IMG/VR virus record: IMGVR_UViG_3300045988_036168
Direction: 5' to 3' (one strand)
From: a virus
DNA length: 64,000 nt
The position numbers and the translations under genes were made by a program. The notes below the pieces were generated by a model. It saw only the letters and a program-made list of their open reading frames with translations, was not told the origin of the DNA and ran no database searches. Positions 6,791-64,000 of the stretch are shown here, piece after piece (the stretch's first letter is position 1; each line of letters begins with the position of its first letter).

Positions 6791-7825
6791 TTATGGGTTC
6801 TCGTCCTCAGAGGGGAAGACTTCGTCCAGCATGGATTCCGTGTCTTCGGTGGAGGCCATGTCGTCGGGGCTGACGCCGCTGGTCGATGCGGTGATCGTGC
6901 CGTCCGCTGCCACAGAGATACCTTTGCCGATCTTTACGCCGCCGAGCCGCGTTGCCGTAGCCACGGGCAGCACATAGGTCGAGCCTCCGCCTCCCCCACT
7001 GCTGCTGGCACCGGGAGATACGAGGGCGATGGTCGCCTCCATATCCTCGTCAGGACTTCTCTTTGCCCAGAAGCGCAGCGCACCGGCAAGGGTCTGCACC
7101 GTCGGGCAAAGGCCAGCGTTTTTCGCGGTCTCAAGGGCCGCTTTATGCAGAGCGACGTTCGGGAACTGCGTTTCCGCAGCCTCCGTCACGGGAACATCGA
7201 CGTAGTAGCGATACTCGTCCATGTCCCACGCGCCCTGTTCATCAGGATTCTCCTCCTGCCATGTCCAGCCGGTGTGGGGAATCGTGATGTCTTTGATGAT
7301 TGCGGTGCCGACACCGCTGATCGCCTCCTGAACCATCGTCCGTACCAGCTCCTCAGCCTCAGCGGACGTGATGAACGCGCCGGGGTTGTAGGTAATCTGG
7401 ACATCGGCATCCAACTCAAGGGCAATCGAAATGGGATAGCGCCGAATGTCAATGCGGTTATCCTTGTAGGCATTGACCGGCTGCGGGCTGTCGCCCAGCG
7501 TTGCGTAGTAGAGCAGGATCTCCTCGGTGTCCTCGGTCTTGGCGAATACGCCAAACTCGCGGAGCCAGAAGCCCTCCTGCAAACCGCCGTTCAGGTCGTT
7601 GCGGTATTCGACCACCATGCTCAGTACGCCGTTCTCCACAGTCGCGACGGACGAAACGCCCTCCGCAACCGGAGTGACCAGCGCGACCATGTCGATAGGC
7701 TCAACACCTTCGGGCATGGCGCCAGAGCCGACCATGATGCGGGTGAACTCAATCGTCTTCCCAGCCATGAGGCTCGTAATGAGATTTCGGCCGGCGACTG
7801 TTACGGTTCCGCCATAGTAGCTCAT
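6791..7825 (-). CDS. tail fibre protein with tail-collar-type N-terminal domain
   Basis: MSYYGGTVTVAGRNLITSLMAGKTIEFTRIMVGSG resembles tail-collar fibre N-terminus; ATATRLGGVKIGKGISV fibre motif; follows baseplate genes. Confidence 0.65.
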   Translation of the reverse strand: MSYYGGTVTVAGRNLITSLMAGKTIEFTRIMVGSGAMPEGVEPIDMVALVTPVAEGVSSVATVENGVLSMVVEYRNDLNGGLQEGFWLREFGVFAKTEDTEEILLYYATLGDSPQPVNAYKDNRIDIRRYPISIALELDADVQITYNPGAFITSAEAEELVRTMVQEAISGVGTAIIKDITIPHTGWTWQEENPDEQGAWDMDEYRYYVDVPVTEAAETQFPNVALHKAALETAKNAGLCPTVQTLAGALRFWAKRSPDEDMEATIALVSPGASSSGGGGGSTYVLPVATATRLGGVKIGKGISVAADGTITASTSGVSPDDMASTEDTESMLDEVFPSEDENP

Positions 7826-26511: not shown

Positions 26512-29500
26512 CTATTTCCCATCTACCTCTTGCTGCTTGTAGACCAGCCCGTACTCATGCGCGTGTAGCTGGAGATACAAGTCCGTCTCCGCAATTAGGT
26601 CGTTGCGCGTCATGTCGCCGTCCTGATACTTCTTCTCAAGCGACTCAAGGTGCGTAGCCACCGACCTTGCAGAGTAGCCATCATAGTCGCTCGTCTTCTG
26701 TAACGAATACAGCTTGGTCTTGCTGGTCATATACATGACCTGTTCGTCGGCATTGGCAAAGCTACGGACATCGGTGTCCGAGAAGCAGCTATCCGTATCG
26801 CCGGGGTGATTATGCAGGGTGGAGTATGCCACGTTGTTCTGGCCGCTTTTTACGCCGTGTGCGCTTCCGGTATCTCTTGCGATTTCGTTTCCGTCTTCGT
26901 CATACGACACGAGGGTTTCATCCGCATTGTTGCGGATTTCAAGGCTGGCCTTCTCTGCCGATTTTCTGACCTTCGAGTCGTCAGGGGCTTTATCAGCTAC
27001 GCGCTTCCGCTCTTTTGCGACCTCTCGCAGCTTTTCATCTACCAACTCGTCGAGCTTGCCAGCCTGAATGGCCTTATCGACCTCTCGGAAGCGCATTCCC
27101 TTTTCCACCAGAAACTCTGCCTTGAAGTCTTCACTTTTCCCGTGAAGCAGTTTCGAGGCAGCAGGCGTCAGGGATGGCGCAGAGCCGCCAACTTGGCCCG
27201 GAACTCCTTCATGGCCGTGGTTGCCCGAGCCGGGGCCACCGTCGAGATCGGAGGAATCCCCTCTATTTCCGACTTCCTCAAGCGTAAGTTTCACGGCTTT
27301 GTATTTCCCAACGGAATAATCAGGGTTGGTATCAAGAACCTTGAATCTTGCCTTTTTTGAATACAGGACTTCATCCATGTCAACGTCGGCCACATCCTTG
27401 ATGGAAACACCACTCTTCGACTTGCATTCAAGCACAACGTTGTACGAATCAGGGTCATCACCGTCTCTGGATCTGAACACTCTCTTTAGAGCATCATCCC
27501 CAGTAGACCAGCTTGACAGATGACCGAGTCCGAACGTGCTGTTCCCTGACGACTCTGCGATGAACTTATCAAAGGCATCCTTGTCCATTGTCATTGCGCG
27601 CTTTGTCGTTCCTTCGTACTTATCTGAGAGCGAAATCGCTTTTTCAATGGCCGCTGCGCTCTTTTCGGCGGTAGCCTTTTCTTCACTATCCATCAGTGAA
27701 CCGCGCGTCGCATACACACCGGAGTACCCAGCAGAAGCCGCCACGACATCCTTGTAGTTCCGTGTGTAGTCAGATGTAGCATCGACCATTTCTTGCACTT
27801 CACGGTCGCTCAGTTCGCGTCCGGCGTTTTTGCTCCACTCGGATTTTTTTGCAGAGTAAACTCCTCTTTCAAGTCCGTGGCTGGTTTCACCGTCGTATGG
27901 AGAGGTGCTTCCCTCGCGCTCCTCCGAACCACCGATTTCACCTTCGCGCCCTTTGTGCCCAAAATTCCCGCTTCCCGGCCCGCCGTCTTCATCAAAAGGG
28001 GCGAAGCCTTCTGGCTCAGCCTCCCCGTTTGCGATAGCTTTCACCAGTGCAACGTCATCCGCGAACGGCTGAAACAGAGACGGCTTGAGCTGTTCGATTT
28101 CATCCAGCGTTCTGAACTGCGGGTCGGCCATTTCGCCATCCACGCAATTCGGCTCGCCTTCGTACTCAGTACACAGGAAGATGTACGGCTGAATGCCGGT
28201 GTCAGGCTCCATAGGACCTCTTCCGAGCGGGATCAGCTCTTTCGGGCTGATGCCGAACTCTTCTTCAACTTCGCGGAACGCCGCCTGCTTCGGAGACTCG
28301 CCTTCCTTGATGTGACCGCCGGGGCCACAAATCAGGCCGTGGCCGAACTCCGTCTTTCTGGTTCCACTCAGAACCTTGCCCTGAGAGACCACCAGAACGC
28401 CTACGCAGGCTTTTGTATCTTCGGGGGTAGATGTATTCCCATCACCCTTGACATCCTGTACCGAGGCTTTAGCGCGATTTTGCGGGGCATTGGCGGCTGA
28501 CTGTTGACGTTCCTCGTCGCTCATGTCCTGCGGCAGCTTGGTCGCAGCAGGTGCGGCGGCGGGAGCTTCACCGTCTCCGCCGGGGTCTTTCTTGTGCTCT
28601 TCGGTGCTGGTGCCCTCGGCATAGTCAGCGAACTGGCCCTGCTCGAAAATGCTCTGCCCAACGTCACCGGAAACCTGACCGCCCTCTGCAGGCTCGTCGG
28701 GGAACAGATTCTCGTCGTCGTATTCGTCGAGCATATTCTCGACGTCGAACTCCTCACTGTCGGCCAGCTTGGCGCGAACCTCACTCGGGTCGATAACCTG
28801 CTTGTCGATGTAAAGCTGGGCAGTCTGCGCTCTGGCGAGCTGTGTCTGCGCCCGCTTCTGGTCAAGGTCTGCCTGCTCCGTGTCGCTGAGCGACCACAGG
28901 GGGTTGAACTCCACCTTGATCTTCGGCACTTCATCCACTTCGCCGGTACGGACGCCTGCTTGGAAAATGACCGACAGCAGATAGCGCAGGTTCTTCTTCA
29001 CCATGCGCTTCTGGATGCGCTCCAGATAGTTGTACCAGTTTTCCAAATCAGCGTCGCCGGTGGCGTTCATGCCTGCCGGCGAACGGCCAAAAAGAATGGT
29101 CTGAGGAATCGAGGTCAGCGCCGACAGGAAGTTGCAGGTCGAGTCGATGACGTCGGAGACGCCGCTGAACTGGAACTGCCTGAAGTCGTAGTCCTCGCCT
29201 TCGCTGTCAATGGTAATGCTGTTCAGCAGGCCGCGGGCCATGTCAATCGTCTGCAGACGGCGCAGGACTCTGTCCTCACCCTCTTCGGTGGCAAGCTCTG
29301 CGGCCAGATCCTTCATCTTGTAGACCGCCTGAACGGAGCGGTCGAGCAGCTTCGTTGCGCTGCCGTGGGCCACTTCCGCGTCACGGATGGCCCTGTTGAT
29401 TCGCACATACTCGGGGATGCCCCAGAGCTGGTAAATCGAATTGGTCGTGTTCTCGGGCAAGATGCCGTTCTGGAACACCAGGCACCGGCTGTCGTGAACG

Positions 29501-30117
29501 GTGAACGAACCGGTGCGGCTCGTCACGTGGTAGAACTCGGGCATACCGAGGCGGGAGCCTCTGGTGCGGAACGGGTCACGCGGGTCGTAGGAGAACATAC
29601 TCTGATAGTCGGGCTGGATCACCGAGCGGTCATAGACGCGAATATCGTCAATCGACCGGATGTTGCGCCAGTCCAGAGGCTCGTCGATGCCGCGGCCGTC
29701 GTTAATCATCATCACGGCGATGGAACCTCCGAAGAGCCGCGCCCAGCGGATGGCGGTCATGGCCGTTTCTTCCCAGTCCAGCTCGTCGAGGGCCTCCGTA
29801 TAGAAGTCCTCGATTTTCTGGTCTTTGGTGCTCTCCAGCGTGAAGCCGTGCTTGATGGCCTCCTCTGCGGGCGTGTCGATGATTTTCGCAAACAGGCCGT
29901 TGCCCTCGTAGTACATGGTGAGCAGTTCATCGGGAACCACAGGCTCGGCACGGAACCGATACCCTTCCGTGGTGTCCTTGCTCGTGCCGTACTTGTTCAT
30001 CATGTTCACGTAGCCGTCGGCTCGGTAGGGGCGAACGGCCTTGCCGGTCTGCATCTCGATCAGGTGGGCGTACCTTTTCACGATGCGCTCGGCTTGGTCT
30101 TTGCGTCTGTCGTCCAT
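26512..30117 (-). CDS. portal protein fused to Nudix, ADP-ribosyltransferase-like and JAB/MPN-like domains (polyvalent protein)
   Basis: aa 1-470 portal-like (DUF1073 type); Nudix box GHIKEGESPKQAAFREVEEEFGI (28249-28320); R/SxS/E ART-like pattern (KRAM, SSWST, DEVLYSKKARFKV); HNHPGDTDSCFSDTD (26770-26814); two DGGPGSGNxGHxG...GGS linkers. Confidence 0.85.
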   Translation of the reverse strand: MDDRRKDQAERIVKRYAHLIEMQTGKAVRPYRADGYVNMMNKYGTSKDTTEGYRFRAEPVVPDELLTMYYEGNGLFAKIIDTPAEEAIKHGFTLESTKDQKIEDFYTEALDELDWEETAMTAIRWARLFGGSIAVMMINDGRGIDEPLDWRNIRSIDDIRVYDRSVIQPDYQSMFSYDPRDPFRTRGSRLGMPEFYHVTSRTGSFTVHDSRCLVFQNGILPENTTNSIYQLWGIPEYVRINRAIRDAEVAHGSATKLLDRSVQAVYKMKDLAAELATEEGEDRVLRRLQTIDMARGLLNSITIDSEGEDYDFRQFQFSGVSDVIDSTCNFLSALTSIPQTILFGRSPAGMNATGDADLENWYNYLERIQKRMVKKNLRYLLSVIFQAGVRTGEVDEVPKIKVEFNPLWSLSDTEQADLDQKRAQTQLARAQTAQLYIDKQVIDPSEVRAKLADSEEFDVENMLDEYDDENLFPDEPAEGGQVSGDVGQSIFEQGQFADYAEGTSTEEHKKDPGGDGEAPAAAPAATKLPQDMSDEERQQSAANAPQNRAKASVQDVKGDGNTSTPEDTKACVGVLVVSQGKVLSGTRKTEFGHGLICGPGGHIKEGESPKQAAFREVEEEFGISPKELIPLGRGPMEPDTGIQPYIFLCTEYEGEPNCVDGEMADPQFRTLDEIEQLKPSLFQPFADDVALVKAIANGEAEPEGFAPFDEDGGPGSGNFGHKGREGEIGGSEEREGSTSPYDGETSHGLERGVYSAKKSEWSKNAGRELSDREVQEMVDATSDYTRNYKDVVAASAGYSGVYATRGSLMDSEEKATAEKSAAAIEKAISLSDKYEGTTKRAMTMDKDAFDKFIAESSGNSTFGLGHLSSWSTGDDALKRVFRSRDGDDPDSYNVVLECKSKSGVSIKDVADVDMDEVLYSKKARFKVLDTNPDYSVGKYKAVKLTLEEVGNRGDSSDLDGGPGSGNHGHEGVPGQVGGSAPSLTPAASKLLHGKSEDFKAEFLVEKGMRFREVDKAIQAGKLDELVDEKLREVAKERKRVADKAPDDSKVRKSAEKASLEIRNNADETLVSYDEDGNEIARDTGSAHGVKSGQNNVAYSTLHNHPGDTDSCFSDTDVRSFANADEQVMYMTSKTKLYSLQKTSDYDGYSARSVATHLESLEKKYQDGDMTRNDLIAETDLYLQLHAHEYGLVYKQQEVDGK

Positions 30118-32023: not shown

Positions 32024-32935
32024 TCACTTTCCTGCCAGATATTCGGTGGCAAGCATTTCGATCAACTGCCAGCGGTTCTTGCTCGTGATGGCACCGTCCT
32101 TCTCGGCCTTCTTGATGGCCTTCGTAATGGTAGCTGCAGACTCCGCAGGGATGGCGTTGCTGCCGAAAATCTTCGTCAGATACGTCCACTCCTCGTCGTC
32201 CTTGAAGCCGACCTCGTCCATCTTCTCCGTGACGCTCTCGATCATGGAGTGGATGGCGGCGCCGACGTTGCGGATGTCGGAGAACTTCTGGTAGCGGGCC
32301 AGCGCCTCGATGAACTGCTTGCACTGCTCGTAGGGCGCGACACCGATAATCTCAGGTGCCGAGGACTCAAGATTCTTCACCAGCGCATCCATGTCCTTCA
32401 CCTGATGCGGCAGGAACGAAAACGTGATGTTCTTGAAGTCGAAATGCACCGCCGGGGACAGCAGCTTATCGTACTGCTCCAGAGGCTCCTCCATGATGTC
32501 CTTGCCGATGAAGCTCTCCAGCATATCATCCACGTCGTCGAGCATCTTGCAGATCTCGCGCAGGATGGACGGGTCATCGAAACCGCTGATGGCGTTGTGT
32601 GCCAACTGCTTCGATGCGATCTTGGAGCGGGACAGGCCGCTCACGTCGATGATGGCGATAATCTCCTTCATGCCGGCGGCGCGGGCGCTCTTGATGCGGT
32701 GGTGGCCGGAGATAATCTCCAGAACGCCGTCTTTCTCCACCAGCAGGGGCAGGCTCTCAAGCTGGCCGCGGTTCTTGATGTTCGCGGTGAGCTGATCCTG
32801 CATTTCCTTCCTCATGATGCGGGCGTTGATGTCCTGCTCCCGCACCTTATCAAGCTGGACTTTGGCGATAATCAGGCCGGTGCCCATGTCGTAAATCTTC
32901 TCGTAGCTCATTGCTGTGCTCTCTTCTGCTGCCAT
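32024..32935 (-). CDS. ParB-like nuclease-domain protein
   Basis: Start MAAEEST (RBS GAGGAGGGAG); GHHRIKSARAAG ParB/Srx motif. Confidence 0.75.
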   Translation of the reverse strand: MAAEESTAMSYEKIYDMGTGLIIAKVQLDKVREQDINARIMRKEMQDQLTANIKNRGQLESLPLLVEKDGVLEIISGHHRIKSARAAGMKEIIAIIDVSGLSRSKIASKQLAHNAISGFDDPSILREICKMLDDVDDMLESFIGKDIMEEPLEQYDKLLSPAVHFDFKNITFSFLPHQVKDMDALVKNLESSAPEIIGVAPYEQCKQFIEALARYQKFSDIRNVGAAIHSMIESVTEKMDEVGFKDDEEWTYLTKIFGSNAIPAESAATITKAIKKAEKDGAITSKNRWQLIEMLATEYLAGK

Positions 32936-34302
32936 TGTTTCTCCCTCCTCAGCCATTCGGCCAACGTAGCCTTCTCGTCACGGCCAGCCACAAGGGCGGC
33001 CTCATAGGTCAGCTTGTACCCGTTCTTCGCGTCCTCCTGCCGGTTGACCAGCTTCATGATGCCGCGAACCTCTTTGTTCTCGGCGTACTTCGTGAGCATG
33101 GCTGTACGCATCTTCGTGACCTTCTCTTGGTCGATGTCGTCGAGCAGCGTGTCCACGAAGCTCTGGTTCTGGGCCAGCATATAGCAGAGACGGCCGAGGC
33201 GGTACAGCTTGTGCGGTGCCTTCATGACGTACCACACAAAGATGGAGTCCGCAGCCATCTTCGAGATGCCGAAGACCGCGGCCACATAGCCGTCGATCAG
33301 GACAGCACGGTTGTAGGTCGCCTGCGAGCCTACGAAGTTGTGCGTCCAGAGCATCCGGTAATACTGCGCGTTGGCGCCGGCGATCTGGATAATTCGGATG
33401 TCGCTGTCCTCTGTGATCTCATAGTCGAGCGGGAGCATACTGCATTTCAGAGGCTCCAGCTTGCCCTCCTGCGGGCGCTTGATTTTCTTCCCTTTGGCAA
33501 GGGCCACGGCTTCCTCTTCCCTGTTCGTCGTGATGTACGAGTTCAGGTCGGCGCGTGTCCCAGAGCGGGCAAAGATGGTGTGGCCGACGGCCTCACCTGC
33601 CCGTTTCTCCTGATAGCACAGGAGCAGAGCGGGAGCGTCCATCATCATGTCATAGAGCTGCTGATGGCCGGTCTCAGGGTCGAACATACCGTAGGGTGGC
33701 TCTTTCCAAGTCATCTTTCCCTGCGTGTCGTAGAACTTCTCATAGCCGGCGAAATACGTCGGCGGATTCGCCACGATGATCGTATGCGGGTCGTCCTTCA
33801 CCTCACGGAGATGATCCCACATATCCAGCGGGCGGTAGCTCATACCACCGAGCAGGCTCTTCGTGGCCTCAAGCTGTCGGCGTATGCTCTCGATGTGCTC
33901 TTCACGCCTGTCGTGCAGGTCGCGCAGGATGTTGTGGAAATACTCGTTCCCTGCGCTCTTCGATGTCCGCAGATAGATTTGCGCGTACAGAGCTACGGCC
34001 GGGTCTAACAGCTCTTCATCGGAGAAGCCCTGCGCGTGGATCTGCAGCGGTTCGAGAGACTGGCCCGTGATGGCGTAGCCCATCACCGAGGTCATCATGT
34101 TCACGTCGCTGGTTTCGATCTGCTCAGGCTTGAACCCCGACTGGACTGCCAGATTCGCCATAGCGAATGTACCGGCGCATGGCTCTACGAACCGCGTGTA
34201 CCCAGAACGCCGAGCGGTCTTAATGAGCTCAATCAAAAACTTCTGCTCAACACCGTTCAGGCACCCGAGGAACATCGCTCCGGGGTCCATAAAAAACGCC
34301 AT
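32908..34302 (-). CDS. DNA methyltransferase, Dam-like (N6-A or N4-C class)
   Basis: Motif I-like FVEPCAGTFA and motif IV-like IIVANPPTYF; paired with ParB-like gene. Confidence 0.5.
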   Translation of the reverse strand: MAFFMDPGAMFLGCLNGVEQKFLIELIKTARRSGYTRFVEPCAGTFAMANLAVQSGFKPEQIETSDVNMMTSVMGYAITGQSLEPLQIHAQGFSDEELLDPAVALYAQIYLRTSKSAGNEYFHNILRDLHDRREEHIESIRRQLEATKSLLGGMSYRPLDMWDHLREVKDDPHTIIVANPPTYFAGYEKFYDTQGKMTWKEPPYGMFDPETGHQQLYDMMMDAPALLLCYQEKRAGEAVGHTIFARSGTRADLNSYITTNREEEAVALAKGKKIKRPQEGKLEPLKCSMLPLDYEITEDSDIRIIQIAGANAQYYRMLWTHNFVGSQATYNRAVLIDGYVAAVFGISKMAADSIFVWYVMKAPHKLYRLGRLCYMLAQNQSFVDTLLDDIDQEKVTKMRTAMLTKYAENKEVRGIMKLVNRQEDAKNGYKLTYEAALVAGRDEKATLAEWLRREKQWQQKRAQQ

Positions 34303-34384: not shown

Positions 34385-35056
34385 TTACATCTCGTCGATC
34401 AGCTTATCGACGATGTCCAGACAGGTCATCGCTGTCCTGCCCTTCTCATTCCAGTATTCCGCAGCGCCACCCCTAACGCTGTCGGCTACCGTTTTCACCA
34501 TCAGGCACGGAACGTCGTTGCGGTCGCAGGTCAGCAGGATCGCCGCCGCTTCCATATCGCACACATCCGCGCCGAACTCTTTGTTGAGCCAGAGCTTTTC
34601 CTCGGCCTTGCCCATGAACTTATCGCCAGAGGCGCAGCACACATGACGCAGGTTCGGGAACACTCGGCTTGCCATCTCCATAAGCCGTTCATCGGTCTGG
34701 AGCCGCCAGTCTGGGTACTCCATGTATTGACCAACAGGCACACCGTCCACGTCGGATAGGTCGTACTGCCAATGCACCACGCAGTCAACGAGGCAAGGCT
34801 CGTCGGCCATCAGGTCTTCTCTGCAGCCTCCCACTACGCCGTAATTAAGAACCGCAGCGACTTCGTAGCGGTCGATAAGGTATTGTGTTGCGGCGGCCGC
34901 GAAAATCTCACCTGCGCCGCTATACAGGGCGTAGACTTGGCTTTTGGCGGTTTGATAAAGCACTGTGCCGTAGCCGTCGTTCAAATCGTAGCCTTCGCCG
35001 TATTTCTGGCGCATGGCCTCTTCCTCGACCGCTACGATCAGTCCGATCTTCCTCAT
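34385..35056 (-). CDS. mtnN: 5'-methylthioadenosine/S-adenosylhomocysteine nucleosidase
   Basis: Start MRKIGLIVAVEEEA (RBS GAGGAG); SGAGEIFAAAAT, SGDKF, DMEAAAI patterns of the PNP_UDP_1/Pfs family. Confidence 0.75.
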   Translation of the reverse strand: MRKIGLIVAVEEEAMRQKYGEGYDLNDGYGTVLYQTAKSQVYALYSGAGEIFAAAATQYLIDRYEVAAVLNYGVVGGCREDLMADEPCLVDCVVHWQYDLSDVDGVPVGQYMEYPDWRLQTDERLMEMASRVFPNLRHVCCASGDKFMGKAEEKLWLNKEFGADVCDMEAAAILLTCDRNDVPCLMVKTVADSVRGGAAEYWNEKGRTAMTCLDIVDKLIDEM

Positions 35057-35072
35057 GGAGTCACTCCTCGAT

Positions 35073-35108
35073 GCAAGAGAAAAGGCAGCCGGTTCGCCGA
35101 CTGCCTTT
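35073..35108 (-). terminator. rho-independent terminator closing the tRNA-like array
   Basis: AAAGGCAG-12 nt-CTGCCTTT stem, then UUCUCUU on minus strand; only ~17 nt upstream of the mtnN start codon. Confidence 0.55.
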
Positions 35109-35117
35109 CTCGTATTC

Positions 35118-35191
35118 TGGACCGGGCCCCAGCTTGCGAGGCTGGAACGCCTGCCGGGGAGGCAGGAATGATGCACTTTCACCAAGCCCGG
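35118..35191 (-). tRNA. non-canonical tRNA-Gly-like element A (anticodon-position CCC), CCA encoded
   Basis: Cloverleaf CCGGGCU-UG-GUGA-AAGUGCA-UCAU-U-CCUGC-CUCCCCG-GCAGG-CGUU-CCAGC-CUCGCAA-GCUGG-GGCCCGG-U-CCA; no G18G19, no T-Psi-C-type loop. Confidence 0.5.
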
Positions 35192-35194
35192 ATA

Positions 35195-35267
35195 TGGACC
35201 GGGAATCCGCTTACGGGGCGGAAACTCTCGACAGGATGCCGAGCGTGATACCTTTCGCTATTCCCGG
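35195..35267 (-). tRNA. non-canonical tRNA-Gly-like element C (anticodon-position UCC), CCA encoded
   Basis: CCGGGAA-UA-GCGA-AAGGUA-UCAC-G-CUCGG-CAUCCUG-UCGAG-AGUU-UCCGC-CCCGUAA-GCGGA-UUCCCGG-U-CCA; A at position 33. Confidence 0.45.
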
Positions 35268-35292
35268 ATGTTGCCCCGATGGTCGGGGCCTA

Positions 35293-35369
35293 TGGCACGG
35301 ACGGTTGGGAATCGAACCCACCACACGCGGTTTTGGAGACCGTGTCGCCACCTTGGGACATTCGCCCGT
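35293..35369 (-). tRNA. tRNA-Trp(CCA)-like, irregular
   Basis: ACGGGCG..CUCCAAA loop..GGUUCGAUUCC..CGUCCGU-G-CCA; A1:U72, G73, canonical T-loop and GG in D-loop; only 4 clean bp in anticodon stem and a G.A mismatch in T-stem. Confidence 0.55.
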
Positions 35370-35372
35370 ATA

Positions 35373-35446
35373 TGGACCGGAACCCTACTTGCGAGGTAGG
35401 AACTCCCTCAAGGATAGAGGGCGTGATGCTCTTTCACCAGTTCCGG
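35373..35446 (-). tRNA. non-canonical tRNA-Gly-like element B (anticodon-position UCC), CCA encoded
   Basis: CCGGAAC-UG-GUGA-AAGAGCA-UCAC-G-CCCUC-UAUCCUU-GAGGG-AGUU-CCUAC-CUCGCAA-GUAGG-GUUCCGG-U-CCA; all stems perfect. Confidence 0.5.
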
Positions 35447-35454
35447 GTATCTGA

Positions 35455-35611
35455 TGTGCGGGCGGGGATTTGTCACCCCGCATAGCACAGGCAGCGTACA
35501 ACGTGCTTTCTTCCCGTCCGAGGTAGCTACTTAACCCCAATAGGTCTGCGTTCTGTTGTGCCCTTCTGCGCCGCATACCCTTGCTGCGTCTACCTATTCC
35601 GCCACCGCACA
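35455..35611 (-). ncRNA. 157-nt tRNA-flavoured element (Leu-type D-arm, T-arm-like 3' end, unresolved ~105-nt core)
   Basis: 5' UGUGCGG-UG-GCGGAAUAGGUAGACGC (class II tRNA D-arm) and 3' GCGGGG-UGACAAAU-CCCCGC-CCGCACA close a 7-bp acceptor-like helix; no anticodon arm found by eye. Confidence 0.3.
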
Positions 35612-35626
35612 TCACCGGCCTGCCGG

Positions 35627-36082
35627 TTACAGCAGGCTCAGTTGCTCAACTTTCTCTTCAGGCGGTTTTGCCGCCTTAGGCTGCTTCAAAGCGTCAGTCT
35701 CAGGCATCTCCTCGATGACCTCGCCGGTGTGGGCCAGCCACCACTCCGCAAACAACGTGCGGTGGCACCAGTTCTCAGGCTTACGGATGTCCTCAAAGCA
35801 GAGCAGAACCAGCTTCTTGTCCTCCTCCTGAGCCTTGGCGTCAAGCCGCTGGACGATGCCGATAATCTTATCGACGCCGATCTTATCCAGCTTCTTGAAA
35901 TACTCGGCCTTGTACTCCTCATAGCCCAGCTTCAGCATATCGTACCGCGGAGCCAGCGCGTAGCACTGTTCACGGATCTCGTACCCAGTTGAAAATCTGG
36001 GCTTGCCGACGCTGATGCCGACGGGATAATACCCATCGTTTCGGAGTTCCTTGTTGCTATACCGACCTGTCATAATTGCCAT
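35627..36082 (-). CDS. DUF488-family protein
   Basis: LVLLCFEDIRKPENWCHRTLFAEWW matches DUF488 LLC.E....CHR signature; RBS AGGAGG. Confidence 0.65.
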   Translation of the reverse strand: MAIMTGRYSNKELRNDGYYPVGISVGKPRFSTGYEIREQCYALAPRYDMLKLGYEEYKAEYFKKLDKIGVDKIIGIVQRLDAKAQEEDKKLVLLCFEDIRKPENWCHRTLFAEWWLAHTGEVIEEMPETDALKQPKAAKPPEEKVEQLSLL

Positions 36083-36110
36083 GTGATTGCCTCCTGAATA
36101 TCTTTACTTT

Positions 36111-36138
36111 ATTGTACCATACGGCCTACCTAAAGCAA
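36111..36138 (-). promoter_or_regulatory. sigma-70-type promoter upstream of DUF488/tRNA-like array
   Basis: Minus strand TTGCTT - 16 nt - TGgTACAAT (extended -10). Confidence 0.5.
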
Positions 36139-36368
36139 GGTTTTACGGTGTCGCTACGCATTTTTGTGACCTTGTTCGGATGCCTCGCGCCTCGCTGTGG
36201 CAGGCTGTGAAATCCCTTTTTAGGGGTGACACATACCCAGCCGATGGCCCTCCGCCTCACCGTTCCGCCGTCGTGGCGTTTTCGATGCAGGTTTCAGGCC
36301 CTCAGGCGCCGTGTGGTTGTGATACTCAGGGGTTCTCACCAAGCAGCGCCTTGCTGGGTCTGTTGCGC

Positions 36369-37538
36369 TTACTTGATGGCTTCGAGCAGCTTCTCCGCGG
36401 TGTCCGTCTGCTCCCAAGTACGCTCCTCGCCGATGACGTTGCCGAAGTGTCCGTAGGCGGAAGTGTTCTTGTAGACGGGCTTGCGAAGGTCAAGCCAGTT
36501 GATAATGCCTCTGGGGGTCAGATCATAGACGGCCTCGACGGCGTCGCAGATCTTATCCTCGGCGTACTTGCCGGTGCCGTAGGTATCGACTCGGATGCTC
36601 ACGGGCTGCGGTACACCGATTGCATAGGCGAGCTGGACCTGACACTTATCAGCGATTCCGGCAGCCACGATGTTCTTTGCGATGTGGCGGGCTGCATACG
36701 CTGCAGAGCGGTCAACCTTGGTGGGGTCTTTACCAGAGAAGGCGCCACCACCGTGCGCGGCATAGCCGCCGTAGGTGTCAACGATGATCTTACGTCCGGT
36801 GAGGCCCGAGTCCGCGGCAGGGCCACCCTTGACAAATCGGCCCGTGGGATTGATGAACAGGCTGTAAGTGACCACGTCCATATCAGGCCGATAGGTCAGC
36901 AGTTCGTCGAGGACAGGCTTGATGACGTGTTTCTGCAGGGGTTCGATCAGATCCTCCGGGGCAACACATTCCTCATGCTGGGTAGAGATGACGACGGTGT
37001 CAACCCGTACCGGGTTGCCCCCCTCGTCATACTCCACCGTTACCTGTGTCTTGCCATCGGGGAGGATGTGAGGGATCGTGCCATCCTTTCTCTTCTTCAT
37101 CAGCAGGTATGCCATCTTATTCGCCAGCGTGATAGGCAGGGGCATCAGATCCGGTGTCTCGTTACAGGCGTAGCCGAACATCATTCCCTGATCCCCCGCT
37201 CCGCCGACTCCATCGTTGGTTCCCATTGCGATGTCGGGACTCTGCTCGTCGATAGCTACCATCACCGCGCAGGTGTTGCCGTCAAATCCCGCCTTGGGGC
37301 TGTCATAGCCGATGTCCTTCAGGACGCCGCGGGCGATACCGGCAAAGTCGATGTAGTGCTCCGTGCTGATCTCGCCCATGACCAGCACCATGCCGGTCGT
37401 GCAGCAGGTCTCGCAGGCCACACGGCCATTCGGGTCATGCTTCATGACCTCGTCGAGCACTGCGTCAGAGATGCGGTCGCACACTTTATCGGGATGGCCT
37501 TCCGTGACCGATTCCGAAGTGAAGAGTATCTTGCTCAT
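36369..37538 (-). CDS. metK: S-adenosylmethionine synthetase
   Basis: [22 protein letters not shown] and full-length MetK pattern (389 aa). Confidence 0.95.
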
Positions 37539-38010: not shown

Positions 38011-38534
38011 GCCTTATCCTCCTTGATGTAGTTTTCATTGAGCCAGTCGATCCATCCAGAGATACCTCCGCAGGCGTCCAGCACGTCATCCGCGTCATCC
38101 ACGATGCTCGATCCGTGCCAATGCCCCTTCGGGTCTTTCACGAATGCCTCGATCCAGCTATTGTTCTCAAATGCCACCTTGTTCTCAGCCGTTTCGTCTG
38201 CGTTGAGGGCGTCCCACAGCTCCGCGTCGCTCTTGAAGGTAGTCCTCAGAGTGTCAGATGCCGCCATGTTCATCGCGCCGGTGTTCTGCTTGTTCTTATA
38301 CAGGAAATCGTGGCCGTTCATGAAGCCGACGATCTCGACGTCTCCATGTACCTCGACGGACACCTCATAGCCCTTGTATCTCAGGCCACCGATATGGCCG
38401 CCGTACCACACGCAATCGAGGTGGTCATCGTCAATGAAAATGCTCTCCTCGGTCAGAAGCTCCGCGCCGAACGCCTTCGCGTCGGCCTGCATCTTGCGGT
38501 AGCGCCGCTCGATCTTATGCCGGCTCATAGCCAT
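38007..38534 (-). CDS. hypothetical protein
   Basis: 175 aa, co-oriented. Confidence 0.45.
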   Translation of the reverse strand: MAMSRHKIERRYRKMQADAKAFGAELLTEESIFIDDDHLDCVWYGGHIGGLRYKGYEVSVEVHGDVEIVGFMNGHDFLYKNKQNTGAMNMAASDTLRTTFKSDAELWDALNADETAENKVAFENNSWIEAFVKDPKGHWHGSSIVDDADDVLDACGGISGWIDWLNENYIKEDKA

Positions 38535-39055
38535 CTCTCCTTCACCATCATATAGGCGTACACCGCCTTAACAGTTTCCTCCAGATTGCGGTTGCTGAAC
38601 CACGCATCCGCCATGACGTGCAGGTCCTCAAACTCCTTGGCATCGAACTGCAAGCGCTCTTTCACCGCCTCCGGTGCATCTCCGCGTTCGAGCATTCTCT
38701 CAGTTCTCTCCTCCTGTGGGGCATAGATGGCAATGACTACCACCTCTTTGCTGCCGGAATATCTCTCCCACATATACCGGATTCCAGCGGGGTCGATCAC
38801 ATAGATGTCGTTCTCCTCAATGACAGACTCCGGTACGCCGTAGCGGTAGCCGTTGTAAAGCGTAAACGCGCACATCTTGCCAGCCGCATCGAACTGCTCG
38901 GGCGTAACGAAGATATGGCCGGGTTCGCCATCGAAACGGGGCGGGCGCTCCGTGTATGACCAAACTTCCTTCAGGCCGTACCTCTGCGTCAGCTCGCGGG
39001 CGACGCTGGATTTTCCAGAACCGGACGGGCCGGCAAGCAGGTAGATGTTTTTCAT
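38525..39055 (-). CDS. guanylate-kinase-like P-loop kinase
   Basis: Walker A GPSGSGKS near N-terminus; 176 aa. Confidence 0.6.
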   Translation of the reverse strand: MKNIYLLAGPSGSGKSSVARELTQRYGLKEVWSYTERPPRFDGEPGHIFVTPEQFDAAGKMCAFTLYNGYRYGVPESVIEENDIYVIDPAGIRYMWERYSGSKEVVVIAIYAPQEERTERMLERGDAPEAVKERLQFDAKEFEDLHVMADAWFSNRNLEETVKAVYAYMMVKERWL

Positions 39056-43678: not shown

Positions 43679-44851
43679 TTATGACGATGCTTTGAAGTTG
43701 TAGATGGGCCTGATAATCTCCAGCACGTCGCAGGTCGGGCCGATGCAGCCCATGATCTCCTTCGTGTCCTTGTAGGCGAACGGCGCCTCGTCTATGGTGT
43801 CGTAGCTGATACAGGAGCTATGCACGTTCCGCATCGTCTCTCGGTAGGCTCCGAGAGAAATAGACTCTCGGGCTTTGCTGCGGGACATCAGGCGGCCAGC
43901 TCCATGCGGTGCCGACTGGTTCCAATCGTCGTTGCCCTTGCCGACGCAGATCAGAGAACCGTCGCGCATATTCATCGGAATAATCAGGCGCTCGCCCTTC
44001 TTAGCAGACACAGCACCTTTCCGCAGGATCATGCTCTCGTGGTCAATGTAGTTGTGCACGGTCGTAAACTGCTCCTGCGGGACGATGTGCATAGCTTTCA
44101 GGATGGCCTTTGCGATGGCCTGACGGTTGGCCTCCGCATAACGCTGGATGATCTCCATGTCGTTCAGGTAATCGTCCATCAGTTCGCCGGTCAGGTACGC
44201 GAGGTCGGGTGCCCCGAAGTCGCTGTGCTGTTTTCTCAGTTCTTCCAGCGCACCGGCGATTTCCTTCTGCCGGCCAGCAGCCTTGTACTCGGTGACAACA
44301 CGGCTGATTTCCTCACTGGTGGGCTTTGTCATGGCCTCCATCGCTCTGCGCTGGTGCCAGTTCGCCACCTCAAGGCCGAGCTTTCGGCTGCCGGTGTGGA
44401 TCACCAGCCAGAGGCCGCCGCTCTTATCCTTGTCAACCTCGATGAAGTGATTGCCACCGCCGAGCGTCCCGATGCTGAGGAGCGCACGGCTGTTGTCGAT
44501 GCCGACGCATTTCAGGCCGCTCAGGTCGAACCACTCCTTCGGGTAGTTGTGAGTACAGAAACCGGCCGGCACATTCCAGCGGATGGCCTTGTCCAGCTCG
44601 TCAAGGTCGAGCCTCACCCGCCCCAGCTTGACGGCCAGCATACCGCAGCCGATGTCCACGCCCACGAGGTTCGGGCAGACGCGGTCGTGAATGGTCATCG
44701 TCGTTCCGATAGTACACCCAGCGCCGGCGTGAACGTCGGGCATGATCCGTACCTTGGAGCCGTCACTCACGGGATGGCGGGACAGCTTCTCAATCTGCTC
44801 CGTCGCTTCCTGCTCGATGGTCTTCGCAAAAATCTTCACATCATTGGTCAT
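43679..44851 (-). CDS. rtcB: RNA 3'-phosphate/5'-OH ligase RtcB
   Basis: PDVHAGAGCTIG, GCGM, GGGNHFIE, HTGSR, PHGAGR motifs. Confidence 0.9.
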   Translation of the reverse strand: MTNDVKIFAKTIEQEATEQIEKLSRHPVSDGSKVRIMPDVHAGAGCTIGTTMTIHDRVCPNLVGVDIGCGMLAVKLGRVRLDLDELDKAIRWNVPAGFCTHNYPKEWFDLSGLKCVGIDNSRALLSIGTLGGGNHFIEVDKDKSGGLWLVIHTGSRKLGLEVANWHQRRAMEAMTKPTSEEISRVVTEYKAAGRQKEIAGALEELRKQHSDFGAPDLAYLTGELMDDYLNDMEIIQRYAEANRQAIAKAILKAMHIVPQEQFTTVHNYIDHESMILRKGAVSAKKGERLIIPMNMRDGSLICVGKGNDDWNQSAPHGAGRLMSRSKARESISLGAYRETMRNVHSSCISYDTIDEAPFAYKDTKEIMGCIGPTCDVLEIIRPIYNFKASS

Positions 44852-44863
44852 CGTCTTTTCCTT

Positions 44864-45637
44864 TCACTCGCTCCACGGAAACTCTGTGATAATGTCGTCA
44901 CCCCAAATGGGCTTCATACTGTCTTTCATGAACACCGGCTTCCCGGTCGAGCGAGCGTATTCGACAACAGCCTCGATCCACTCGCGTTTCGGAGTGACTT
45001 TGCCTTTCCGGTTTCCTGTTTCAGCTCCGAGTATGAACCAGTCGATGTTCTTCATCTCGTCAGCTACAATCTTTCCGTCGAACGAGCCGAGAACCGGCTC
45101 CATGCTCGCAAAGGTGTGGTGCCGATCAGACCAGAACATCGGCATTTCGTCATCGGTCGCCGTAGATCCGTACCAGTAATCATCCCCCTCCGGCAGCAAG
45201 CCAGCTTTGTAGAGGTCGATGTACCGCTGCGGGTTCTTTGTGAGGAACAGGTATCTGTGTCCGGGAGCTTCCTTGCAGGCGTCGAACACCTTCTTGATCC
45301 ACTCGTCAGGCACCCAGTCCCCGAACAGGTCGGCCATCGAACAAACGAAAATGGTCTTTCCAAGCCCCTTCGTCAACGGGTCGTTGAGGCGGTACTCGTG
45401 GAACGTCGGCGTAAAGCCGAAGGGGTAGGCCGCGTTTCTGGTGACACCGTCCTTGCTGGTGACGGTCAGGCGTTCCTTCAGGTACACCACGTTCTCGTCA
45501 GTCTCTCCACCGGCCGCACAGTCGCAGCCTTTGAAGCGGTTCGCGGTCGATCTGGCATAGCAATACGGACAGGAATGATAGCAGCCGCTCACGGGATTCC
45601 ATGTGCTGTCGCACCACTCGATCTTACTCTTTTCCAT
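44864..45637 (-). CDS. phage Gp37/Gp68 (DUF5131) protein with radical-SAM-like Cx3Cx2C
   Basis: IEWCDSTWNPVSGCYHSCPYCYA N-terminus. Confidence 0.7.
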   Translation of the reverse strand: MEKSKIEWCDSTWNPVSGCYHSCPYCYARSTANRFKGCDCAAGGETDENVVYLKERLTVTSKDGVTRNAAYPFGFTPTFHEYRLNDPLTKGLGKTIFVCSMADLFGDWVPDEWIKKVFDACKEAPGHRYLFLTKNPQRYIDLYKAGLLPEGDDYWYGSTATDDEMPMFWSDRHHTFASMEPVLGSFDGKIVADEMKNIDWFILGAETGNRKGKVTPKREWIEAVVEYARSTGKPVFMKDSMKPIWGDDIITEFPWSE

Positions 45638-63029: not shown

Positions 63030-64000
63030 CTACACCGCCACCATGTCCAGCAGGGCGGCCATTGTCGTGATGGTGTCGCCTACTTTGGCGACGTATTCGG
63101 GGAAGTTTGCCCTTGCAACAGCCGCAGCCATCGGCGGGCAGACGGCGTTGCCACAGCGGGCGACCTGTTCGTTCTTCGGGTACGGGTTGCCCATGTAATC
63201 GCGGTCGATGATGTAATCGGGTGGGAACCCCATCGCATTGTAAAGCTCTCTCGGGGAGAGCATCCGCAGGCCGATGTCTGCGATGAAGTAGAGCGTCCCG
63301 CCGATGCTCAGAAGCAGCAGGTCGTCATCGGCCAGCTTATAACCGCAGTAGCGGTTCAGCAGTTCGCGGATCAGCGGCCAACGATACAGGTTCTCGTCCG
63401 GGCCAGCCTTGCAAAGCAGCGTGTCGCAGAGGGCGAAGGTTCCTCCGCCGCAAGCCTTTTTCTGGCCCGCGCCTGCCGTTACGGTCTGCATCGGTTCTGC
63501 AGGGCTGCTCCCCAAGTTGTCTCCCTTGAACTTCACCACATGGGCCGCGCACACCGCATTGTGGTCGATGGCCGTCACCGTCGGAAGCGGCTCTTCCATC
63601 TTCTCGCCGACCACACCGCTGTAATACTTCACCAGATTTGCGCAGGTCAGACCGTAGCGGTTCGAGGCATCCACGGTGGGGATTGGAGCGCCGAGGCCAG
63701 AGGCTCGGACGTTTTCTGTCTGCTCGGTATGGTACTGAATGAGCGAGGGCGCCACGATACCGCCCGTATGCTTGGCGGTAATGGTTTTGTATGGGCCACG
63801 CACATCGGCGACGTGGCCGCCTCCTGCGTGATTACATTCGGCCAGATATGGGGTTACAAGCATCTGGTTCCCTGCTGTCGTCACGGTATGTACCGGATCA
63901 CCGGCAGGCGCTCCGACGCTGTTGCTGGTGTTCGTCGCCGTGAACGGTGCCAGCACCGGCTTGCAGAGGTTGTGCTTGCCGCTCCCGACCACCGTAGGCA
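63030..64000 (-). CDS. DNA (cytosine-5) methyltransferase, C-terminal part (5' end beyond window), long repeat-containing target-recognition region
   Basis: RMLSPRELYNAMGFP and GNAVCPP (motifs IX-X); frame open to nt 64000; five P..T(V/I)(T/D)A units upstream. Confidence 0.8.
   Translation of the reverse strand, partial: PTVVGSGKHNLCKPVLAPFTATNTSNSVGAPAGDPVHTVTTAGNQMLVTPYLAECNHAGGGHVADVRGPYKTITAKHTGGIVAPSLIQYHTEQTENVRASGLGAPIPTVDASNRYGLTCANLVKYYSGVVGEKMEEPLPTVTAIDHNAVCAAHVVKFKGDNLGSSPAEPMQTVTAGAGQKKACGGGTFALCDTLLCKAGPDENLYRWPLIRELLNRYCGYKLADDDLLLLSIGGTLYFIADIGLRMLSPRELYNAMGFPPDYIIDRDYMGNPYPKNEQVARCGNAVCPPMAAAVARANFPEYVAKVGDTITTMAALLDMVAV

Follow-up and report, generated by a model that had tools for sequence, protein, structure and literature searches.

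Why would a phage carry one gene for making S-adenosylmethionine (SAM) and another for clearing the by-products of its use, on either side of an array of tRNA-like genes and next to a putative DNA-modifying enzyme? The question is raised by IMG/VR virus record IMGVR_UViG_3300045988_036168, a stretch of 64,000 nt (one strand, hereafter the window) that contains metK and a gene for a nucleosidase resembling MtnN/Pfs. MetK makes SAM, and Pfs removes S-adenosylhomocysteine (SAH), methylthioadenosine (MTA) and 5'-deoxyadenosine, which inhibit methyltransferases and radical-SAM enzymes. The original prediction for this DNA had read metK, a DUF488 gene and the nucleosidase gene as one set that secures the SAM-dependent chemistry of the phage. 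We labeled the genes of the window by profile, structure and synteny comparison and found all genes of that prediction in their places on the minus strand. Its proposal of SAM supply and by-product clearance is still the best available reading, in a narrower form: MetK and the SAH/MTA-type nucleosidase would be accessory proteins that provide SAM and remove by-products for the DNA-modifying enzymes of the phage during lytic growth. We hold this explanation with about half of our confidence. The two genes proved to be accessory, the substrate of the nucleosidase is putative, and the three genes probably do not form one unit.

In transcription order, replication and middle genes ending in metK are followed by a promoter-like element, the DUF488-like gene, tRNA and tRNA-like genes, a terminator-like hairpin, the nucleosidase gene, a gene for a Dam-like/GNAT fusion protein (DamGNAT), a ParB-like gene and the terminase genes. 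As claimed earlier, metK, the DUF488-like gene and the nucleosidase gene are co-oriented upstream of the Dam-like and ParB-like genes, all on the minus strand.

The metK gene (36369-37538, minus strand) is the last gene of the replication/middle module and encodes a complete methionine adenosyltransferase of 389 residues. Its identification is unambiguous, and the predicted reaction is the synthesis of SAM from ATP and methionine. The three S-AdoMet_synt domains (PF00438, PF02772 and PF02773) are each matched over their full length, the score against TIGR01034 is 538.7 bits (cut-off 309.4), and the best solved relative is PDB entry 7r3b with an E-value of 9e-138. The motifs GHPDK, GAGDQG, D-x-G-x-TGRK and GGGAFSGKD are all intact in the translation and in the alignment to 7r3b. 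The full-length metK of the original prediction is therefore confirmed. The protein also matches phrog_1569 (E = 2e-136). A 184-nt spacer with a possible promoter of its own precedes the gene, and the spacer on its 3' side (286 nt) ends in the promoter-like element ahead of the DUF488-like gene. An Rfam search of the region from 33.5 to 38.5 kb at E-values up to 1 matched a tRNA and found no SAM riboswitch or other known RNA near metK.

MetK relatives are encoded on 311 viral stretches, and we examined the gene context at 71 of these (L126-L196). A DUF488 gene lies approximately 1.2-2.3 kb downstream of the MetK start in 45 of the 71 loci, most of which run on into the full module of DUF488-like gene, tRNA or tRNA-like gene, DamGNAT, ParB-like and terminase genes. 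These 45 loci belong mostly to phages related to Faecalibacterium phage FP_Brigit (NC_047909), with MetK proteins 59-75% identical to that of the window; the remaining loci show unrelated gene contexts.

The nucleosidase gene (34385-35056, minus strand) encodes 223 residues, is preceded by a GAGGAG ribosome-binding site and is the first gene past the terminator. The protein scores 80.7 bits on PNP_UDP_1 (PF01048). Its best solved relative is 4jos (E = 8e-19), and MTA/SAH or aminodeoxyfutalosine nucleosidases make up all of the top 38 PDB matches. In an alignment of E. coli MtnN with 13 family members, the positions of F151, M173, E174 and D197 (E. coli numbering) do not vary, and the residues that bind adenine and ribose in MTA/SAH nucleosidases (MTAN) are kept. 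Compared with E. coli MtnN, R193 is replaced by Lys, S196 by Ala or is kept as Ser, and Ser76 is replaced by Val. The fold is that of MtnN/Pfs from E. coli (1jys) and H. pylori (3nm4), with the equivalents of Phe151, Met173-Glu174 and Asp197 in place, at a sequence identity of approximately 23-28%. From these comparisons the protein can safely be assigned to the adenosyl-nucleosidases of the MTAN branch; its activity on SAH, MTA and 5'-deoxyadenosine, that is, its exact substrate, is putative. The mtnN/pfs label of the original prediction thus holds as far as the branch and the catalytic Asp and Met-Glu pair are concerned, but not at the level of the equivalog cut-offs given below.

The cellular relatives of the nucleosidase come from Lachnospiraceae and other Clostridia and are 40-48% identical to it (approximately 44%). 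They occupy a conserved chromosomal locus, following a gene for a MiaB-like radical-SAM methylthiotransferase and beside serC/serA-like and AlaX-like genes, as expected for a housekeeping enzyme that clears SAH and 5'-deoxyadenosine. Among viruses, the nucleosidase was found in 15 IMG/VR loci and sits in the same slot in 14 of them. A synteny search for metK, DUF488 and mtnN, as suggested with the original prediction, recovered the order MetK-DUF488-tRNA-nucleosidase-DamGNAT-ParB-TerS in 14 IMG/VR contigs, including a lineage (L014) whose nucleosidase is 62% and whose DamGNAT is 91% identical to that of the window. In another phage (L016, 4085-8663), a nucleosidase with 65% identity follows a 1062-aa reverse-transcriptase-domain protein and precedes holin and amidase genes. 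The 50,697 deposited phage records contain only four weak homologues (25-33% identity), and a comparison with PHROG matched no family for the nucleosidase, whereas MetK has a PHROG of its own.

Are these genes a recent acquisition from a host, absent from relatives, as the original prediction allowed? We rejected this possibility. Synteny of MetK extends to FP_Brigit and to dozens of divergent viral contigs, identity between the nucleosidase and its cellular homologues reaches only about 44%, and both genes carry the codon-position GC pattern of the phage. This pattern is clear for the minus-strand genes between approximately 26.5 and 55.5 kb (~0.58/0.40/0.75). The ratio of nonsynonymous to synonymous substitutions (dN/dS), calculated for the window against its relatives, is well below 1 for both: 0.07-0.13 for MetK and 0.16-0.34 for the nucleosidase. 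For the DUF488-like gene it is 0.07-0.22 and for DamGNAT 0.006-0.06. Given the conservation pattern and these ratios, MetK and the nucleosidase are functional, long-resident, accessory phage genes and not pseudo-enzymes.

Their accessory nature became apparent from the module itself. A core of promoter, DUF488-like gene, tRNA or tRNA-like RNA, terminator, Dam-like/GNAT, ParB-like and terminase genes is conserved on more than 100 viral contigs. We recovered 68 IMG/VR loci with the DUF488-like family and compared the window proteins with them by tblastn. The DUF488-like gene, a 70-nt tRNA-like gene, DamGNAT, ParB, TerS and TerL are invariant in this set, whereas MetK occurs only in L036-L038 and the nucleosidase only in L036 and L037. 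MetK recurs upstream of the module promoter in Brigit-like phages and in the window lineage; the slot after the terminator is taken by the nucleosidase in the window lineage only. We therefore discarded a single metK-DUF488-mtnN operon or pathway, because the DUF488-like gene and the tRNAs form a promoter-to-terminator unit that is kept in phages without both enzymes. MetK, DUF488 and the nucleosidase are probably not one operon or pathway, and the single set of the original prediction has to be given up.

The boundaries of this unit are defined by two elements. The promoter-like element (36111-36138, minus strand) reads TTGCTT-16 nt-TGgTACAAT and lies directly upstream of the ribosome-binding site of the DUF488-like gene. 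An equivalent element, TGTACTTAGG..T(G/A)GTATAAT, is found upstream of the DUF488-like gene in distant relatives without MetK. Consensus and conservation make it a putative promoter. At the other end, a hairpin resembling an intrinsic terminator (35075-35105, minus strand) closes the DUF488/tRNA unit. It consists of GGCAGTCGG-CGAA-CCGGCTGCC followed by TTTTCTCTT; as judged by sequence and fold, the stem has 9 bp and is rich in G+C. Approximately 20 nt further on, the nucleosidase gene begins with its GAGGAG ribosome-binding site and ATG. A hairpin with a T-run is also located on the 3' side of the tRNA-like gene in L062 (7584-7620) and L056 (~7585-7690), just before DamGNAT. From this arrangement we infer that MetK closes the replication/middle unit, that the DUF488-like gene and the tRNAs form a leader unit, and that the nucleosidase would open the late unit, which DamGNAT, ParB and terminase share by read-through.

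The leader of the lambda-type late operon consists of PR', a short transcript and then tR'. The arrangement in the window is similar in that a promoter, a short unit and a strong terminator would lie directly ahead of the packaging and late genes. It differs from lambda in that the leader encodes a DUF488-like protein and tRNAs and that no antiterminator was identified. A lambda-style late-operon leader that needs read-through is thus suggested by analogy.

The SAM users that the two enzymes might serve are DamGNAT, a C5-type DNA methyltransferase and a DUF5131 protein. DamGNAT (32908-34302, minus strand) is a fusion of a Dam-like (D12-fold) domain with a GNAT-like domain (PF22555, E = 2.7e-73; PF22559, E = 1.4e-30), and NCBI names the identical protein 'putative antirestriction adenine methyltransferase'. 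The best 120 of its 453 matches are 72-100% identical, and the identical protein occurs on at least 1000 contigs. The only Pfam membership of the methylase part is PF22555 ('DAM-like-phage1'), not PF02086. A sequence search of the PDB gave no relative of DamGNAT. Its structural model (mean pLDDT 75.8) matched acetyl-CoA GNATs and class-I SAM-dependent methyltransferases in the PDB. In BFVD, the N-terminal domain matched a D12-class N6-adenine methylase with an E-value of 1.3e-3 over 253 columns; Mom was among the matches of the model with 1.3e-2. The sequences FVEPCAGTF (motif I) and ANPPTY (motif IV) are recognizable variants of the methyltransferase motifs and are highly conserved in the family. 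The methylase of the original prediction is thus Dam-like and has a methyltransferase fold, but it is fused to a GNAT domain, has variant CAGTF and NPPTY motifs, and may not be a plain methylase.

The other two SAM-linked genes are present as predicted. The C5-type DNA methyltransferase (63030-64000, minus strand; phrog_23072, E = 3e-47) is cut by the end of the window, which holds its C-terminal part with the motifs RxLSPRE..GFP and GNAV. The DUF5131 (Gp37/Gp68) protein (44864-45637, minus strand) contains the CX3CX2C sequence CYHSCPYC and is a candidate radical-SAM-type SAM user; it scores 130.9 bits on PF07505 and 21 bits on PF04055 (Radical_SAM, cut-off 29.5).

Based on the gene order and the protein assignments we propose the following scheme. 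During genome replication, MetK would provide additional SAM. The nucleosidase would be produced together with the late proteins and would hydrolyze SAH and probably also MTA and 5'-deoxyadenosine. This clearance would protect the SAM-using enzymes, namely DamGNAT, the C5 methyltransferase and the CX3CX2C protein of the DUF5131 family, from inhibition by their products at the stage at which many copies of the genome have to be modified ahead of packaging. SAM would thus be made early and SAH cleared during modification and packaging. The transcription units, substrates, timing and benefit in this scheme are our deductions from the genes and their order. We favor the scheme because MetK lies directly upstream of the module in about 45 of the 71 MetK-bearing loci, because the nucleosidase is the first gene past the leader terminator and directly ahead of DamGNAT, and because both genes are under purifying selection. 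The position of cellular nucleosidase relatives by a MiaB-type radical-SAM enzyme, the presence of other SAM-linked genes in the phage and the NCBI name of the adjacent enzyme argue in the same direction.

Several observations weigh against it. The module can do without MetK and the nucleosidase, since both are missing from most phages that bear it, and in the window the two genes apparently belong to different transcription units. In L016, the nucleosidase stands alone in a cargo slot by the lysis genes, off the block. The nucleosidase stays under the NCBIfam equivalog cut-offs (92 vs 169 bits for PRK05584 and 43.7 vs 73.8 bits for TIGR01704). Only one Glu is invariant in the nucleosidase family, and its counterpart in E. 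coli is E10, not the catalytic E12; in this region, the window protein carries three consecutive Glu residues, E11-E12-E13. In DamGNAT, motif I reads G-x-F where G-x-G is expected and motif IV reads NPPTY, and hhalign gave no meaningful alignment between the protein and E. coli Dam. As this comparison and the PDB sequence search were both empty, we rejected a direct relationship to Dam. SAM use by DamGNAT is plausible but unproven, and the enzyme may do more than methylate.

Among the alternatives, a role directed at the host survives best, and we still consider it unlikely. In lysogenic conversion or general auxiliary metabolism, MetK and the nucleosidase would alter the host by way of the methionine/SAM cycle, the AI-2 (autoinducer-2) precursor formed via Pfs, polyamines, biofilm or growth. 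Such effects have a precedent, as a Streptococcus agalactiae prophage metK changes aggregation and biofilm formation (PMC8223999), and both metK and mtnN appear in virome surveys among the auxiliary genes of cysteine and methionine metabolism (PMC9356048). The 184-nt spacer with its possible promoter before MetK and the L016 nucleosidase in its cargo slot by the lysis genes would also fit. Both genes, however, are co-oriented inside the lytic gene train and far from the lysogeny module (55.9-60.9 kb). The nucleosidase is wedged between the terminator and the late genes, with no room for a promoter of its own, and MetK keeps its slot by the modification module across lineages with 59-75% MetK identity.

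The two genes could instead be unlinked, each an independent hitch-hiking insertion at a recombination-prone module boundary. Both indeed sit exactly at junctions, MetK as the last gene of the replication module and the nucleosidase behind the leader terminator; their distribution among module-bearing phages is patchy, and a neighboring kinase gene is mosaic. Purifying selection on both genes, the retention of the same junction by MetK across deep divergence and the biochemical complementarity of the two enzymes speak for a functional link, and only a small share of the probability falls to hitch-hiking.

It is improbable, too, that the nucleosidase serves counter-defence or is directed at nucleotides, with another adenosyl compound as its substrate, for example an immune signalling nucleotide or the nucleoside pool, and has nothing to do with MetK. 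Its scores under all MTAN equivalog cut-offs leave room for this, and it evolves faster than its neighbors (62% identity in L014 compared with 91% for DamGNAT; dN/dS up to 0.34). It is also found off the MetK/DUF488/DamGNAT block in L016, and PADLOC reports a weak match (2e-9) to a PNP-superfamily defence-effector model. This match is at superfamily level only, and we discarded it as a link to defence effectors. The retained adenine-binding, ribose-binding and catalytic residues of MTAN, the solved relatives, which are all MTA/SAH or aminodeoxyfutalosine nucleosidases, and the cellular relatives, which look like housekeeping rather than defence enzymes, point away from a counter-defence function.

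The remaining alternatives concern the module itself and depend on its RNA genes and its DUF488-like protein. The region between the DUF488-like gene and the nucleosidase comprises 570 nt. The tRNA-like array of the original prediction is present and contains one bona fide tRNA and four tRNA-like elements: a tRNA-Trp(CCA), three tRNA-Gly-like cloverleaves and one long tRNA-Leu-like element, all on the minus strand. The tRNA-Trp(CCA) (35293-35369) has an encoded CCA end and is called by ARAGORN and by the Rfam tRNA clan (36.5 bits). It is the sole call of ARAGORN (default settings) and Rfam in the window; both missed the tRNA-Gly-like units and the long element. The latter (35452-35611, approximately 160 nt) has acceptor-like (UGUGCGG/CCGCACA) and T-arm-like helices, a D-arm of the tRNA-Leu type and about 70 extra nt in its middle. 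A counterpart is present in L014 (~7357-7540), and the insertion differs among relatives. We rejected a transfer-messenger RNA (tmRNA) or an intron-containing tRNA at this position, as ARAGORN with the options -m and -i gave nothing credible.

The three tRNA-Gly-like copies are located at 35373-35446 (loop UAUCCUU), 35195-35267 (loop CAUCCUG) and 35118-35191 (loop CUCCCCG) and score 83.1, 77.5 and 74.8 bits on our covariance model R1. The first copy begins with CCGG and ends in CCGG-U-CCA. In an alignment of 11 sequences, 99.5% of the cells are paired and 11 of the 20 pairs show compensatory changes, compared with 31-47% pairing in slid controls. The covariance model recovered 53 copies of 70-74 nt from 41 sources (L014 and L036-L106), mostly one per phage, and each copy has the DUF488-like gene on one side and the nucleosidase or Dam-like/GNAT gene on the other, all on one strand. 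It found no copy in FP_Brigit or L016. All copies end in CCGG-U-CCA (U73) and keep C35-C36. The anticodon loops in the window are non-canonical: two copies have A33 and U37, and the third combines CCC with C37. In many related phages ARAGORN calls the same cloverleaf tRNA-Gly(UCC or CCC). Brigit-like phages have an ordinary tRNA-Lys(CUU) in this slot. Because this position holds tRNA-Lys(CUU) there and tRNA-Trp in the window phage, it looks like a general cargo site, and the simplest reading of the array is a tRNA cargo slot in the leader unit. The tRNA-Gly-like RNA may have a dedicated role other than decoding.

The DUF488-like gene (35627-36082, minus strand) belongs to the leader unit with the tRNAs and lies outside any SAM pathway. 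It encodes a divergent member of the DUF488 superfamily (PF04343 / PF22751) with 151 residues, among them the invariant C95-x-E97 and C106-H107-R108. The DUF488 label of the original prediction is not reached by the protein itself, which scores 19.6 bits against a Pfam gathering threshold of 27; it is supported transitively. DUF488-N3a is matched by each of 30 close homologues and by 30 of 40 diverse distant members (best E = 2.7e-8); 17 of these 40 match DUF488. At E-values up to 1e-3 the family comprises 1,898 clusters at 50% identity. An AlphaFold model (AF2, mean pLDDT 84) gave only weak matches to dual-specificity Cys-phosphatases (E = 0.055, TM 0.32), a PDB sequence search gave nothing, and the searched literature that mentions DUF488 gives no function for it. 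Disorder and an abundance of K, P and E mark the C-terminal 25-40 residues (~35627-35700 in the window), whose last positions are an invariant Q and then [ML]-S-[LI]-[FL]; the sequence is QLSLL in the window and QMSLF in most homologues. The bacterial beta-clamp-binding motif is QL[SD]LF. This resemblance suggests an enzyme that may be tethered to replicating DNA.

Taken with these features, the conserved module might carry out a complex adenine hypermodification, by non-methyl SAM chemistry or with a linked tRNA as acyl donor, and MetK and the nucleosidase (by MTA removal) would support it. One argument is the fusion of a GNAT with a Dam-like domain. Among viral structures, DamGNAT is best matched by a 695-aa homologue annotated 'Amidoligase enzyme' (A0A8S5SJK3, Siphoviridae sp. 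ct4Uy2, E = 9e-18), which adds an amidoligase domain, and Mom is among the weaker matches. The annotation is a hint that an amide-forming domain is added in some relatives and that a complex adenine modification may be the product of the family. The covariation-supported tRNA-Gly-like RNA, with its encoded CCA, U73, C35-C36 and non-canonical window loops, always lies between the DUF488-like and DamGNAT genes. In a more specific version, which we regard as a long shot, the module would be an undescribed RNA-assisted system: the DUF488-like enzyme with its clamp-binding-like tail, the tRNA-like RNA and the Dam-like/GNAT enzyme would together transfer a group from a charged tRNA-like RNA or from SAM to adenine in replicating phage DNA, and MetK and the nucleosidase would be lineage-specific boosters. 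A GNAT of the Fem type that depends on aminoacyl-tRNA is not supported, given the tRNA-Lys in the Brigit slot and the absence of Fem-type enzymes and L/F-transferases from the top 50 structure matches. We give hypermodification by the module very little probability, since the GNAT domain resembles ordinary acetyl-CoA N-acetyltransferases and the slot, with tRNA-Lys(CUU) in Brigit-like phages and tRNA-Trp here, looks like a general cargo site.

The window represents a Brigit-like temperate tailed phage (prophage) of Oscillospiraceae. FP_Brigit is its closest cultured relative, Oscillibacter sp. UBA8280 and Clostridiales bacterium CCNA10 carry near-identical prophages, and a DamGNAT protein identical to that of the window is found on a record from Muriventricola aceti. 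Every real gene between approximately 26.5 and 55.5 kb is on the minus strand. The replication module comprises a RecT-like protein, an exonuclease, a replisome organiser, a DnaC-like loader, RusA and SSB. The DUF5131 gene is directly followed by an RtcB RNA ligase gene (43679-44851, minus strand). With these two genes and its tRNAs, the phage may repair or replace tRNAs to counter anticodon nucleases of the host. In PADLOC, DUF5131 additionally matches the candidate-defence models PDC-M41B and PDC-M30B. After the DUF5131-RtcB pair, a regulator, several small open reading frames (ORFs) and a guanylate-kinase-like P-loop kinase precede metK. The kinase gene (38525-39055, minus strand) is 96% identical in L003 and 65-67% in the ten other relatives that cover it; the relatives with the divergent allele (among L002-L012) are otherwise 95-99% identical to the window, which indicates a probable recent allele replacement. 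On the far side of the block, the ParB-like gene of the original prediction encodes a ParB-N-domain protein (32024-32956, minus strand) with strong PHROG and weak Pfam matches. It lies immediately upstream of the TerS gene and is followed by TerS, TerL and a portal-NUDIX fusion (26512-30117, minus strand). The fusion protein has 1201 residues with a portal domain (residues 69-425) and a NUDIX hydrolase domain (residues 571-677); its C-terminal region contains HNHPGDTDSCFSDTD, a candidate JAB/MPN-like HxH..S..D pattern. A serine recombinase and an HTH repressor-like gene are located at 55.9-59.2 kb, within the lysogeny module.

How much of this is known from other systems? In FP_Brigit, gp17-gp24 follow the same plan as the window, with SSB, MetK (gp17), a DUF488-like ORF, a tRNA, Dam-like/GNAT, ParB-N, TerS and TerL at 41-66% amino acid identity. 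This phage differs in having no nucleosidase, in a tRNA-Lys(CUU) that replaces the tRNA-Trp and the tRNA-Gly-like array, and in gp18, an additional regulator-like gene that separates MetK from the DUF488-like ORF. The paper describing FP_Brigit does not mention SAM. RefSeq annotates its DUF488-like ORF in truncated form, as a 112-aa hypothetical protein (gp20); the intact ORF (L001, 10192-10644, minus in the locus) has 150 residues with CCYED..WCHR and is followed by tRNA-Lys(CUU).

Streptococcal prophages (e.g. S. agalactiae 12/111phiA) and, as PHROG 1569, many phages likewise carry homologues of bacterial MetK. The streptococcal genes are part of a moron region that also contains a toxin-antitoxin pair and an endonuclease, are truncated relative to E. 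coli MetK and were studied for host phenotypes, whereas the window MetK is full length and adjoins a DNA-modification/packaging module. Viral auxiliary genes of the SAM cycle (metK, mtnN, dcm/DNMT) have been annotated on viral contigs (PMC9356048, PMC13037316). Those listings are at KEGG level and without gene context; for the window we assign both genes to a defined phage lineage and examine their synteny, selection and active sites. Phage T3 offers the counterpart. Its SAM lyase (SAMase) likewise manipulates the host SAM pool with a bearing on restriction and modification (bioRxiv 10.1101/2023.02.27.530186). T3 destroys SAM and inhibits MetK in order to disable SAM-dependent host defences, whereas the window phage would act in the opposite direction and raise SAM and remove SAH for enzymes of its own, with no homology between the two.

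Phage MetK is thus already known (PHROG 1569, FP_Brigit gp17, streptococcal prophages in PMC8223999), and viral metK and mtnN have been listed before (PMC9356048, PMC13037316). In the literature searched, a MetK and nucleosidase pair that brackets a DNA-modification module in a defined phage lineage is undescribed. More unusual than the SAM genes is the DUF488-like/tRNA-like/DamGNAT/ParB module, with its covariation-supported RNA family, clamp-binding-like tail and Dam-like/GNAT enzyme: a compact, widespread module just before terminase, whose parts have putative functions. If the proposed SAM supply and SAH removal are correct, abundant gut phages would oppose the T3-like strategy by adding both for their own protective DNA modification, and the supply of methyl donor would be a measurable limiting factor in phage anti-restriction.

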